A stretch of DNA of 39,184 bases from a virus. Its lineage: Duplodnaviria > Heunggongvirae > Uroviricota > Caudoviricetes. Location of the stretch: IMG/VR virus record IMGVR_UViG_2693429536_000016; one strand, written 5' to 3'. The position numbers were made by a program, and so were the translations under genes. The notes beneath the pieces were generated by a model. It was not told the DNA's origin. It made no database searches and was given only the letters and a program-made list of their open reading frames with translations. Shown piece by piece: positions 15,197 through 18,356 of the stretch. Positions within the stretch are counted from its first letter, which is position 1; each line of letters starts with the position of its first letter.

Positions 15197-15568
15197 ATGC
15201 GTGATATTCAAATGGTTCTTGAACGTTGGGGGGCATGGGTGGCAAATAATCACGAGGATGTGGAATGGTCATCTGTTGCTGCAGGTTTTAAGGGATTAAT
15301 TCCTTCGAAAGTAAAATCCCGCCCGCAATGTAGCGATGACGATGGCCTGATCATTAGCTCTGCGATGACAGTTCTTAAGAAAAAGGAACCGTATCAATAC
15401 GAATTACTGGAAATGTATTATGTGTATGGGGTTACATTACGGGCGTTGGGGGTAAAACTGGGGATATCACTTAATCAGGTTGTTATCAGACTGCAGAAAG
15501 CTGAAGGGTTTATTGACGGTTGTCTGGCAATGTTGGGGGTATCTTTAGAAATTGATTGTTACATATAG
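15197..15568 (+). CDS. Late-gene antiterminator Q-like protein
   Basis: RBS GGAG 8 nt upstream; located directly upstream of the late/lysis region; N-terminus MRDIQMVLERWGAW resembles Q proteins of 21/82-type lambdoids. Confidence 0.55.
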   Translation: MRDIQMVLERWGAWVANNHEDVEWSSVAAGFKGLIPSKVKSRPQCSDDDGLIISSAMTVLKKKEPYQYELLEMYYVYGVTLRALGVKLGISLNQVVIRLQKAEGFIDGCLAMLGVSLEIDCYI

Positions 15569-15643
15569 TAATAAATTCAATCAAAGTAAATAATCATATT
15601 TTATAATAACCTCCTGATGATACCTGTTCATTGGGAGGTTATT

Positions 15644-16261
15644 ATGGATAAAAATGTAGAGCATGTATTAGTTGATGCAATTGAAAATAAGCAATCTTTA
15701 ACAGTCGTTTACTTAGGAGGGAGCCAGCCCGGAACATTAAGGAATATTTCTCCGATTAGTATAAATGGGGATAAGTTGCGGGCAAGATGCCATAGTTCTG
15801 GAGCAGTAAAGGTTTTCAATCTTGGGAAAATACAGTTACCCAGTAACTCCTGCGCGGTATCTATGCACTATGGAGATTTAGAAGTTAAAGCTTATGAGAC
15901 GATGCAGAGCGTAAATGACAACTTTCATGCCCTTTATCCTGAAGGACGATGGGGTGTTGATTTTAATGAGCATCGCTTTGCTTTATTTGATTTTTTTAAA
16001 AACGGGAAACGAAAAAAAACGGCATTTATGGCAATTGAGTTCAGGGAAAGAGATGAAGAGAAAATAATAACAGGTGTAACAATTGATATTGGTATATCTG
16101 GAACAGTGATTTCTGAGAAATCCCGAATCCCAAAAAGACGACCATGGGTAGTGGTTGGTCCCGAACACGGAGAATACAGTACTTATTCAACTTTGGACAA
16201 GGCTGCTACAGCGTTTTTTGAGAGGCTTTCGTTGATAGCATCCGGCCTGGAAGATAATTGA
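15644..16261 (+). CDS. Low-GC moron gene of unknown function between Q and the lysis cassette
   Basis: 206-aa ORF with strong RBS GGGAGG; AT-rich relative to flanking phage genes; start codon and RBS lie within a 12-bp inverted repeat (15603-15614 / 15634-15645). Confidence 0.55.
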   Translation: MDKNVEHVLVDAIENKQSLTVVYLGGSQPGTLRNISPISINGDKLRARCHSSGAVKVFNLGKIQLPSNSCAVSMHYGDLEVKAYETMQSVNDNFHALYPEGRWGVDFNEHRFALFDFFKNGKRKKTAFMAIEFRERDEEKIITGVTIDIGISGTVISEKSRIPKRRPWVVVGPEHGEYSTYSTLDKAATAFFERLSLIASGLEDN

Positions 16262-16392
16262 TTTTATGTTTGGTATTCAGAGTTCGCCGTGCTTAAGAAA
16301 GTCAAGATTCTAAAAATACTGAATGAGCTACTTGTGTTATAACAAAAATGCTATTAGTGTGTTAAGAGTGGTTACTTCGCCACACAACTTAA

Positions 16393-16416
16393 ACCCGCCA
16401 CTGAGCGGGTTTTTTG
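16393..16416 (+). terminator. Rho-independent terminator (candidate tR' / moron terminator)
   Basis: ACCCGC cactga GCGGGT followed by TTTTTT. Confidence 0.6.
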
Positions 16417-16513
16417 TACCTGTAAACTTGGTGCAGTACAGTAAACACGCTGGTGGTCGTGAATACTGACTTTTTATCTTGCTGGCTTTTTAGACAAGAG
16501 TTATTGGTATGTC

Positions 16514-16891: not shown

Positions 16892-17944
16892 ATGAAAAAT
16901 ACTGTAAAAATAAACAGTGTTGATTTAATCAACGCTGATTGCCTGCATTTTATTCAGTCCCTGCCTGATGATTCCATTGACCTGATTGTTACCGATCCGC
17001 CGTACTTCAAGGTGAAACCCAACGGTTGGGACAATCAGTGGAAAGGGGACGAAGATTACCTTAAGTGGCTGGACCACTGTCTGGCCCAGTTCTGGCGGGT
17101 GTTAAAACCTGCCGGAAGCCTTTATCTGTTCTGTGGGCATCGCCTGGCATCTGATATTGAGATCATGATGCGTGAACGTTTCAACGTGCTTAACCATATC
17201 ATCTGGGCGAAGCCGTCCGGACGTTGGAATGGGTGTAATAAAGAAAGTCTGCGCGCATATTTTCCTGCCACAGAGCGCGTTCTGTTTGCTGAACATTACC
17301 AGGGGCCATATCGCGGCAAAAGTGACGGCTATGCAGCAAAAGAAAGGGAACTCAAACAGCACATAATGGCACCGCTGATATCGTATTTCAGGGATGCTCG
17401 TGCCGAACTGGGTATAACGGCAAAACAAATTGCCGAAGCCACAGGTAAGAAAAATATGGTTTCCCACTGGTTTGGTGCCAGTCAGTGGCAGTTGCCGAAT
17501 GAGGCTGACTATCGGAAGTTACAGGCACTGTTTTCCCGTATAGCGGCAGAGAAGTTTCAGGAACAACAACTGGAACAACCACACCACCAGCTGGTGGCAT
17601 CTTATGATTCACTGAATCGCAAATATTCTGAATTGCTGGATGAGTTTAAATCTCTCCGGCGCTATTTCTCCGTATCAGTCTCCGTGCCTTATACCGATGT
17701 CTGGACGCATAAACCCGTTCAGTTCTACCCGGGTAAACATCCGTGCGAGAAACCGGCGGATATGCTCCGGCAAATAATCAATGCCAGTAGTCGCCCTGGT
17801 GATCTGGTTGCTGATTTCTTTATGGGATCCGGTTCCACAATAAAAGCAGCAATGGCGCTGGGGCGTCGGGCGTTAGGTGTTGAACTTGAGTCAGAGCGGT
17901 TTAATCAGACGGTGAAAGAGGTAAGTGAACTGGTGGGGAAATAA
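16892..17944 (+). CDS. Orphan DNA methyltransferase (N6-adenine/N4-cytosine, beta-class order: DPPY then FxGxG)
   Basis: Motif IV ...LIVTDPPYF... near N-terminus and SAM-binding motif ...FFMGSGSTIKAA... near C-terminus; no adjacent endonuclease gene evident. Confidence 0.85.
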   Translation: MKNTVKINSVDLINADCLHFIQSLPDDSIDLIVTDPPYFKVKPNGWDNQWKGDEDYLKWLDHCLAQFWRVLKPAGSLYLFCGHRLASDIEIMMRERFNVLNHIIWAKPSGRWNGCNKESLRAYFPATERVLFAEHYQGPYRGKSDGYAAKERELKQHIMAPLISYFRDARAELGITAKQIAEATGKKNMVSHWFGASQWQLPNEADYRKLQALFSRIAAEKFQEQQLEQPHHQLVASYDSLNRKYSELLDEFKSLRRYFSVSVSVPYTDVWTHKPVQFYPGKHPCEKPADMLRQIINASSRPGDLVADFFMGSGSTIKAAMALGRRALGVELESERFNQTVKEVSELVGK

Positions 17945-18020
17945 TTCTGGTGGCCACGTTGCGTGGCCTTTTTATTTCCAACACAGCACCCGCAAATATC
18001 GCGAGGTGAGAGATGACGAA

Positions 18021-18356
18021 ATGCCTCATAACCCAAATACCTGGCCGGACTGGCTGGAGTTGTTTCAGAGCTGGTGGCGTGGAGACACGCCGCTGGGTGC
18101 AGTGATTATGTCGATCGTTATGGCTGGTTTGCGCATCGCCTATTTTGGCGGTGGTGGTGGCTGGAAGCGAAAAACGCTCGAGATTTTGCTCTGTGGCGCT
18201 CTGACGCTGACCTTTGCATCCGCTCTTGAGTATGTCGGATGGCCTAAATCACTTTCTGTTGCCATTGGTGGCGGCGTGGGGCTGATCGGTGTCGATGCTA
18301 TTCGTGGGGCTGCAATGCGAGTAATCGGTAACAAGTTTGGTGGCTCTAAGGAGTAA
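18021..18356 (+). CDS. Holin
   Basis: RBS GAGGTGAG; hydrophobic segments (GAVIMSIVMAGLRIAYFGG..., ILLCGALTLTFASAL..., SVAIGGGVGLIGV...) and position immediately upstream of the endolysin. Confidence 0.65.
   Translation: MPHNPNTWPDWLELFQSWWRGDTPLGAVIMSIVMAGLRIAYFGGGGGWKRKTLEILLCGALTLTFASALEYVGWPKSLSVAIGGGVGLIGVDAIRGAAMRVIGNKFGGSKE

Follow-up and report, generated by a model that had tools for sequence, protein, structure and literature searches.

WYL domains are understood as single-stranded DNA (ssDNA)-sensing switches of transcription factors for DNA-damage and anti-phage responses. In regulators of the wHTH-WYL-WCX type (DriD, CapW, BrxR, PafBC), the protein carries an N-terminal winged helix-turn-helix (HTH). 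Lambdoid prophages in turn carry AT-rich cargo in their Q-to-lysis part, where stx1 or stx2 (in 933W or Sp5) lie downstream of the late promoter PR' and the terminator tR' and are under Q antitermination. The lambda morons bor and lom are located elsewhere in lambda, and exclusion genes of the rexAB type lie beside cI. Here, we describe the gene of a 205-residue protein in the IMG/VR virus record IMGVR_UViG_2693429536_000016, a stretch of Caudoviricetes DNA of 39,184 nucleotides that we refer to as the window. The open reading frame (ORF) is likewise AT-rich and placed in the Q-to-lysis part but, unlike the stx-type morons, it very probably precedes PR', so that it separates the antiterminator gene Q from Q's late promoter. 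Its ribosome-binding site (RBS) and start codon fall within a long hairpin, and its product has a predicted WYL fold.

Translational gating by a hairpin has a precedent in the phage T4 genes e, soc, 49 and I-TevI (PMC3014915). As in those genes, a stable helix holds the Shine-Dalgarno (SD) sequence and AUG of the ORF in its 3' arm, strong read-through is expected from upstream, and a −10-like element in the 5' arm could provide a translatable short transcript. The 'fold-back inhibition' of IS10 works likewise. Unlike the T4 case, the candidate promoter here is a weak sigma-70 promoter and not a T4 late promoter, and the logic that we propose separates lysogen from lytic growth whereas that of T4 separates early from late expression.

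The explanation that best accounts for the whole, and in which we place even confidence, is that of a Q-locked, hairpin-gated WYL accessory gene, expressed in the lysogen, with a product that binds or senses nucleic acid. We take the gene to encode an uncharacterised WYL sensor without output domain, and everything said of its function, here and below, we infer. If true, a large phage-borne family would consist of a sensor without recognisable output, implying either a new way of sensor action or phage interference with sensors. The hairpin would likewise be a simple example of how a prophage accessory gene can be insulated, at the level of translation, from read-through in lytic growth.

An AT-rich accessory gene adjoining Q

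An earlier note, made from the window alone, had described the ORF as a moron-type gene of 206 aa, conspicuously AT-rich and preceded by a strong RBS. The ORF itself is borne out while its length is not, the protein having 205 aa. The RBS (GGGAGG) was found where expected, in front of the ATG at 15633–15638 with a spacing of 5 nt. Comparison with the surrounding DNA, as the note had proposed, confirms the low GC content (39.5% for the ORF compared with 50.5% for the window), and GC content at third codon positions is 32% in the ORF compared with 47–56% in neighbouring genes. The AT-rich tract exceeds the ORF, extending from ~15360 (within Q) to ~16390.

Two alleles of the ORF occur in E. coli. 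One is at least 99% identical to the window, the other shares ~78% DNA identity and 70–72% protein identity with it (the ~78% allele in what follows). Comparison of the window ORF with the ~78% allele yields a ratio of non-synonymous to synonymous substitution (dN/dS) of 0.23 at a dS of 0.83, and the start at 15644 matches the N-termini of distant homologues. Judged by these sequence comparisons, the ORF is a real gene under purifying selection. An N-terminal extension from the in-frame ATG at 15617 was considered and rejected, the same ATG being out of frame in the ~78% allele. In two E. coli genomes (NZ_CP144926.1 and NZ_CP026723.1), the match to the ORF falls into two pieces, which suggests an interrupted gene.

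Among 5,426 complete E. coli genomes, the ORF was found in 74 (1.4%; 52 at an identity of at least 99% and 22 at ~78%) and the Q allele in 75, the two being essentially always together. This linkage can be explained by the position of the ORF between Q and Q's promoter, which must travel together. The ORF is thus a rare, AT-rich, horizontally acquired accessory gene adjoining Q, in keeping with the moron-type gene envisaged earlier.

Fold and family of the 205-aa protein

The earlier note could not match the protein to any family and proposed remote-homology and structure prediction. Both were run, and the lack of a family does not hold. The protein matches the WYL domain and, over its full length (residues 1–205 of 205, E 5.3e-126), the profile of PHROG 8498, which is annotated as 'unknown function'; its RefSeq name is 'hypothetical' or, already, 'WYL domain-containing protein'. 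An exhaustive profile search returned 951 clusters (50% identity) at E ≤ 1e-3 and 606 at E ≤ 1e-10, the family members being nearly all of 190–205 aa. The AlphaFold (AF2) model, obtained from a 112-sequence alignment, has a mean predicted local distance difference test (pLDDT) score of 84 and contains two confident domains.

The N-terminal domain is modelled as a five-stranded Sm/SH3-like barrel with a preceding helix, the arrangement that defines the WYL (PF13280) fold, and 59 of the 112 family members have a WYL match at E ≤ 0.05 (best 4.8e-8). On the model, we have little doubt that this domain has a WYL fold. Two points weigh against our preferred explanation: the Pfam WYL score of the 205-aa protein itself, 16.5 bits (E 0.0085), is below the gathering score of 21.8, and the fold of the C-terminal domain is without assignment. 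No Pfam match to the C-terminal domain was obtained in any of the 112 members.

In DriD, Tyr168, Ser172 and Arg178 contact the phosphates of ssDNA (PMC9186387). The motif YxGGSxPGxxR of the family profile aligns with the ssDNA-contacting segment of DriD, placing Y23, S27 and R33 opposite Y168, S172 and R178, and these three residues are invariant or near-invariant in the 112 sequences. DriD R176 is not conserved, the corresponding residue being T31 in the 205-aa protein. K56 and F58 may be equivalent to DriD Arg204 and Trp206, as suggested by strand spacing in the model and not by the alignment. Fold and conserved residues together place the N-terminal domain with those of DriD, CapW and BrxR and make the binding of single-stranded nucleic acid probable.

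The C-terminal domain is basic and apparently non-catalytic. Its conserved positions comprise W103, the basic motifs FKNGK and RxRPW, A187 and F191, none of which looks catalytic. The order of its secondary-structure elements, including that of the strands, differs from the published topology of the WCX domain found in the wHTH-WYL-WCX regulators, and the WCX family is absent from the Pfam scan of the 112 members. Foldseek alignments to the DriD C-domain, BrxR and most CapW chains span 111–131 columns and so extend past the WYL barrel. The N-terminus also differs from that of the wHTH-WYL-WCX regulators: the protein starts at the first WYL helix, which begins at residue 3, and no HTH family was found with Pfam or NCBIfam. 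NCBIfam gave no meaningful match at all, a structure search of BFVD no informative one, and no signal peptide, enzyme or toxin domain was detected in the protein. Only weak CRISPR-associated WYL models (E 0.0015–0.0085) were matched in PADLOC-DB v2. Unlike the genes of the wHTH-WYL-WCX regulators, the 205-aa gene is not located beside an operon to regulate. The predicted structure is thus that of a stand-alone sensor-type WYL protein, without HTH or enzyme domain.

Such a protein might alternatively be an anti-defence decoy, which soaks up the ssDNA signal or heterodimerises with host WYL repressors or activators of the CapW, BrxR or DdmDE type and thereby blunts the induction of host immunity. 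The fold and ligand-contact residues do match those of ssDNA-sensing regulators, there is neither an HTH nor an invariant residue of catalytic type, and the Foldseek alignments to DriD, BrxR and most CapW chains reach past the WYL barrel. However, the C-terminal topology is unlike the published WCX dimerisation domain, for which the Pfam scan gave no match. Furthermore, early anti-defence genes do not typically lie beside cI or Q, nor are they silenced on early transcripts as is proposed here, and no such decoy was found in the literature searched. We consider this explanation attractive but improbable.

No publication on the family was found in the literature search, and none that mentions WP_000360285 or phrog_8498. 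The leads obtained from the literature (the Gifsy-1 STM14_3218–3220 region, Tai systems and GiPD474) concern unrelated proteins and were discarded. Some relatives (P0127, P0142, P0145 and P0092) are membrane-anchored. One type has an N-terminal transmembrane helix and a linker that, by visual inspection, is predicted to be helical and possibly a coiled coil, and the other has C-terminal double zinc ribbons together with a membrane segment.

Position of the ORF relative to Q and the late promoter

The ORF begins 75 nt behind Q on the same strand, with no terminator between the two. Q itself is a mosaic: its 5' ~177 nt are 84–89% identical to the Q gene of many lambdoid phages, and its AT-rich 3' remainder was found only together with the 205-aa ORF. 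On the other side, phages having the downstream late region in common with the window (SfV, vB_EcoM-720R4, mEp460, cdtI, Stx2c phages and PhiR40_1) first match it at 16343–16392, at or just before the terminator hairpin. The left limit ~177 nt into Q and this right limit delineate a unit that starts with the 3' half of Q, includes the ORF and ends at ~16350.

The late promoter was located by comparison with the Sakai prophage Sp5, for which the late-promoter start and a 258-nt PR'-tR' RNA have been mapped by dRNA-seq and Term-seq (PMC7547250). The mapped start was converted from NC_002695.1 to NC_002695.2 by an inferred offset of +142 that was checked for internal consistency only, which weighs against the placement of PR'; the converted start is position 1046 of the Sp5 locus (L070), where a TTTACG-16-TATCAT promoter has its TATCAT 7 nt upstream and a terminator T-run ends exactly 258 nt downstream. 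Window positions 16322–16422 align with this region, and the first GC-rich hairpin is conserved. All four aligned sequences share the motif TAAGAnTGGT as well as the T, A and T of the −10 hexamer, and the start-site context is AAGAGTGGTTAC in three and AAGATTGGTCAC in the fourth (L060). Over 16332–16415, the window thus resembles the Sp5 PR'/StxS leader in its −10 signature, in its start context and in a GC-rich hairpin followed by a T-run. The 17-mer TTGTGTTATAACAAAAA (16332–16348) is 100% identical in the ~78% allele, with flanks that are visibly more diverged. In contrast to Sp5, where the promoter overlaps the 3' end of Q, ~690 nt including the ORF separate Q from PR' here. These sequence comparisons make it very probable that PR' follows the ORF, which would then form the tail of the early (PR/Q) unit and separate Q from Q's late promoter. 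Placing PR' in the 75-nt gap between Q and the ORF, with the ORF inside the late leader, was rejected after the Sp5 comparison.

This arrangement bears on the reading of the earlier note, that the ORF occupies the stx/moron site between late promoter and holin, and on the model to which it leads, in which the ORF is Q-dependent late cargo, a toxin/virulence or abortive-infection effector expressed from PR'. Two features agree with this model: the position of the ORF between Q and the lysis genes, and its AT-richness, which many morons share. However, PR' as placed by Sp5 homology is downstream of the ORF and, because PR' is 3' of it, the ORF would not be Q-antiterminated cargo. In addition, prophages of this type have a separate, downstream place for stx2: the gene order in the Stx2 prophage L062, which carries the ~78% allele, is Q, ORF, PR'/hairpin, small ORF, methylase and stx2A. 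The weak PADLOC matches, confined to WYL models, and the lack of a signal peptide, enzyme or toxin domain speak against an effector of this kind as well. The late-cargo model is already largely refuted, and we regard it as scarcely tenable.

The PR' spacer contains a palindrome (16335–16344), which reads TGTTATAACA in the window and in L060 and TTACGATCGTAA in Sp5 (L070 1014–1025) and PhiR40_1. Its sequence changes in step with the helix-turn-helix region of the Q proteins, which makes this allele-specific palindrome a candidate Q-binding element. The candidate is an inverted repeat, whereas a direct repeat has been described as the binding element of Q21.

At its own Q-PR' junction, PhiR40_1 carries an unrelated 148-aa ORF without Pfam match (L002 2048–2494), which is encoded on the opposite strand. 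The presence of this ORF suggests that the junction is a recurrent cargo site. The short Q-PR' junction, besides the region after tR', can hold cargo, and such cargo is genetically locked to the Q allele. One allele of the ORF lies upstream of stx2 in prophages of O104:H21- and O113:H21-type Shiga toxin-producing E. coli (STEC), and Q alleles serve as toxin-expression markers in STEC.

The clean intrinsic terminator that had been reported to follow the ORF is present as a hairpin, with the stem AAACCCGC / GCGGGTTT (16391–16412), the loop CACTGA and a T-run to 16415, although it was not listed by a consensus scan of the window. It belongs, however, to the PR' leader and is kept in phages without the ORF (SfV, PhiR40_1, mEp460, cdtI and Stx2c phages). 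This hairpin is also the first terminator met by any ORF transcript. The homologous GC-rich hairpin and T-run of Sp5 are at L070 1069–1095 (~+24 to +50 of PR'), and in the published map the Sp5 PR' RNA extends to a second terminator, with its 3' end 258 nt downstream (PMC7547250). By analogy, the first hairpin of the PR' leader may terminate inefficiently, as the Sp5 RNA ends at the second. Inspection of 16417–16513 by eye, with no tool scan, found no obvious GC-rich second terminator before the next ORF of the window.

A hairpin over the RBS and start codon

The RBS and ATG had been reported to lie within a perfect 12-bp inverted repeat, with translational control suggested as a consequence. 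The repeat is exact (ATAATAACCTCC, 15603–15614, and GGAGGTTATTAT, 15634–15645) and has no counterpart in 100 shuffles of the window. As RNA it is longer, forming a helix of 21 bp, G-U pairs included, around a 7-nt loop (Table 1). The minimum free energy of this hairpin is −27.3 kcal/mol (z = −5.66), none of 200 shuffles folds as well, and the 21-bp helix is kept when folded in a 146-nt context. With both the SD sequence and the AUG inside a helix of this predicted stability, translational control is plausible, and we consider it likely from the in silico folds that the hairpin blocks translation of the ORF.

Table 1 Features of the Q-PR' region, in window coordinates
Feature	Position	Strand	Remarks
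Antiterminator Q, Q21/PF06530 family	15197..15568	+	Pfam PF06530 E 5e-48; PDB Q21 E 2.6e-10
Hairpin 5' arm	15600..15620	+	anti-SD CCTCC; −10-like TATAAT 15602–15607
Hairpin 3' arm	15628..15648	+	SD GGGAGG 15633–15638; ATG 15644–15646
ORF, family PHROG 8498	15644..16261	+	618 nt, 205 aa; ATG 15644, TGA 16259–16261
N-terminal WYL (Sm/SH3-like) domain, predicted	15644..15841	+	residues 1–66
C-terminal alpha/beta domain, predicted	15896..16252	+	residues ~85–203; helix, antiparallel sheet, long C-terminal helix
Late promoter PR', by homology	16332..16367	+	−35 TTGTGT 16332–16337; −10 TAGTGT 16355–16360; inferred start ~A16367
Intrinsic-terminator hairpin of PR' leader	16391..16415	+	~+25 to +49; shared with phages without the ORF

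The hairpin is kept in the ~78% allele. In an alignment of seven distinct alleles, pairs are formed in 93.9% of the cells, with 13 invariant pairs, 5 one-sided changes that keep the pair and 1 compensatory pair; these alleles form only two deep groups, such that the covariation statistics carry no weight and shuffle controls do not discriminate. The compensatory change replaces U-A by C-G and makes the start codon GTG in L062. In the two Stx2-prophage copies of the ~78% allele (L062 and L063, ~6001), the GTG start restores C-G at a pair that is a C-A mismatch in the sister alleles. The non-coding 5' arm differs between the allele groups at 3 of 21 positions, and adjacent synonymous sites have the dS of 0.83 given above. 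Distant homologues in other genomic settings have no comparable structure (z −1.7 to +1.6), so the hairpin accompanies the position behind Q and not the protein family.

The inverted repeat might instead act as DNA, either by serving a dimeric regulator as its operator or by providing a bidirectional promoter element. A consensus scan does find promoter-like hexamer pairs on both strands of the repeat, among them an antisense TGAACA-16-TATTAT. However, 4 of the 21 pairs in the window are G-U, which pair only in plus-strand RNA and become A-C mismatches on the other strand, and the differences between alleles are mostly compatible with plus-strand wobble pairing. Arms of 18–21 bp are also far longer than typical operator half-sites. 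The G-U pairs and the wobble-compatible substitutions point to plus-strand RNA and not to a DNA operator, making the DNA-level explanation very unlikely. The antisense pair (15630–15603) would direct minus-strand transcription into the 3' end of Q; it is reminiscent of lambda PaQ and may be a mere by-product of the symmetry of the repeat.

A natural hairpin-disrupted variant was observed in IMGVR_UViG_2563366940_000006, where a 768-bp IS1 (L040 5212–5979) lies in the hairpin loop, flanked by a 9–10-bp target duplication (CCTGTTCATT), and parts the 5' arm from the RBS. A small stem-loop over the Q stop codon (15551–15582, AUUGAUUGUUAC...GUAAUAAAUUCAAU) is predicted only in the 146-nt fold. Rfam returned nothing meaningful for the region, the 'miRNA precursor' matches merely reflecting the hairpin.

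Proposed mode of expression

Lodged between Q and PR', the ORF would be fixed to one Q allele and inherited with it. The anatomy of the region indicates that the PR early operon is the only strong upstream transcription. Reading through Q in lytic growth, this operon would yield a transcript that contains both hairpin arms, in which the SD sequence and AUG are predicted to be buried and the ORF to remain untranslated. Synthesis of the protein would instead depend on a transcript without the 5' arm. The likeliest source of such a transcript would be a weak promoter with its −10 hexamer (TATAAT, 15602–15607) inside the 5' arm, as in T4 gene e and I-TevI. Expression would be confined to the lysogen, and the transcript would end at the PR'-leader terminator. 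We put forward the internal promoter and lysogen-only expression as a tentative proposal.

A TAnnnT hexamer is present at 15602–15607 in all alleles (TATAAT in the window, TATTAT in the commonest allele and TACAGT in the ~78% allele), and an RNA that starts at 15614 has no significant structure (−9.5 kcal/mol, z +0.3). Three observations weigh against the internal promoter. Its score is 4.5–6.5, compared with a median best score of 6.7 for shuffles, and there is no good −35 element; the sigma-70 position-weight scan used here did not separate promoter candidates from shuffles. Pairing with the 3' arm and its AUG would account for the 'TA...T' signature equally well. Finally, a start from the alternative −10 element CATATT (15595–15600) would leave a 13-bp anti-SD helix of −21.4 kcal/mol.

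The expression step is also at issue in a rival explanation, in which the ORF is a lytic delayed-early gene co-transcribed with Q from PR. The helix would then be a brake, or an RNase III processing site that opens the RBS, and the protein, made in low or timed amounts, would bind ssDNA intermediates of replication or recombination. In the lambda N leader or cIII, the RBS is opened in this way when RNase III binds or cleaves the RNA, and the substrate size class of the enzyme is about two turns of double-stranded RNA (dsRNA). The helix described here, with about two turns of near-perfect dsRNA, falls into this size class, the ORF follows Q closely without intervening terminator, and no convincing independent promoter was found. 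In contrast, relatives in other phages adjoin the lysogeny repressor and not lytic operons, and the hairpin is missing in those relatives, which fits an insulation needed only behind Q. We consider a delayed-early gene rather unlikely as an explanation of the whole; for the expression step alone, an RNase III site or plain brake is about as likely as the internal promoter.

Relatives of the ORF and a possible role in the lysogen

Relatives of the 205-aa gene are solitary genes in variable regions of temperate elements. A tblastn search of isolated phages revealed only relatives at 27–29%, in a Pseudoalteromonas phage and a Dolichospermum phage. Elsewhere, relatives lie directly after a cI-like repressor (L067, L068 and L072–L074), beside an S24 repressor (L075) or before Rha genes (L006, L069 and L076), and some adjoin integrases. 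Among ~35 distant loci, the upstream neighbours include Peptidase_S24, HTH_3, Phage_CI_C and Phage_CI_repr once each, some of these matches possibly being to the same protein, while three S24 repressors, three Rha genes and two integrases are found among the downstream neighbours. One relative is located within a defence island with AAA_15, FRG, GmrSD_N and HEPN genes. The place of distant relatives directly downstream of cI-like repressors, in the same orientation, is like that of the lambda rexAB-type exclusion genes beside cI, although rexAB has no sequence or fold relationship to the 205-aa family.

In the Q-locked, hairpin-gated reading that we prefer, the protein would act stoichiometrically, binding or sensing single-stranded DNA or RNA in phage-phage or phage-host conflict. 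A conflict role in the lysogen fits the locus because relatives adjoin the lysogeny repressor in other temperate phages, and by this analogy we regard a conflict or exclusion role as possible. The absence of any conserved partner gene among the ~35 distant homologues, whose neighbourhoods are heterogeneous, weighs against it. An unlikely, more general suggestion would be that the family, with at least 950 clusters at 50% identity, forms a new class of stand-alone WYL effectors: lysogen-expressed ssDNA/RNA sensors that work either as single-gene factors of superinfection or entry exclusion, some members having a membrane anchor, or as decoys muting host WYL-controlled immunity. In this suggestion, E. 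coli lambdoid prophages would have captured the gene between Q and Q's promoter, with a hairpin in the style of T4 gene e as its insulation from lytic transcription.

Further downstream in the window, the end of the methylase ORF (16892–17944) overlaps the longest S holin frame (17925–18356) by 20 nt. The holin Pfam match starts at residue 35 of this longest frame, so the real start is probably internal.

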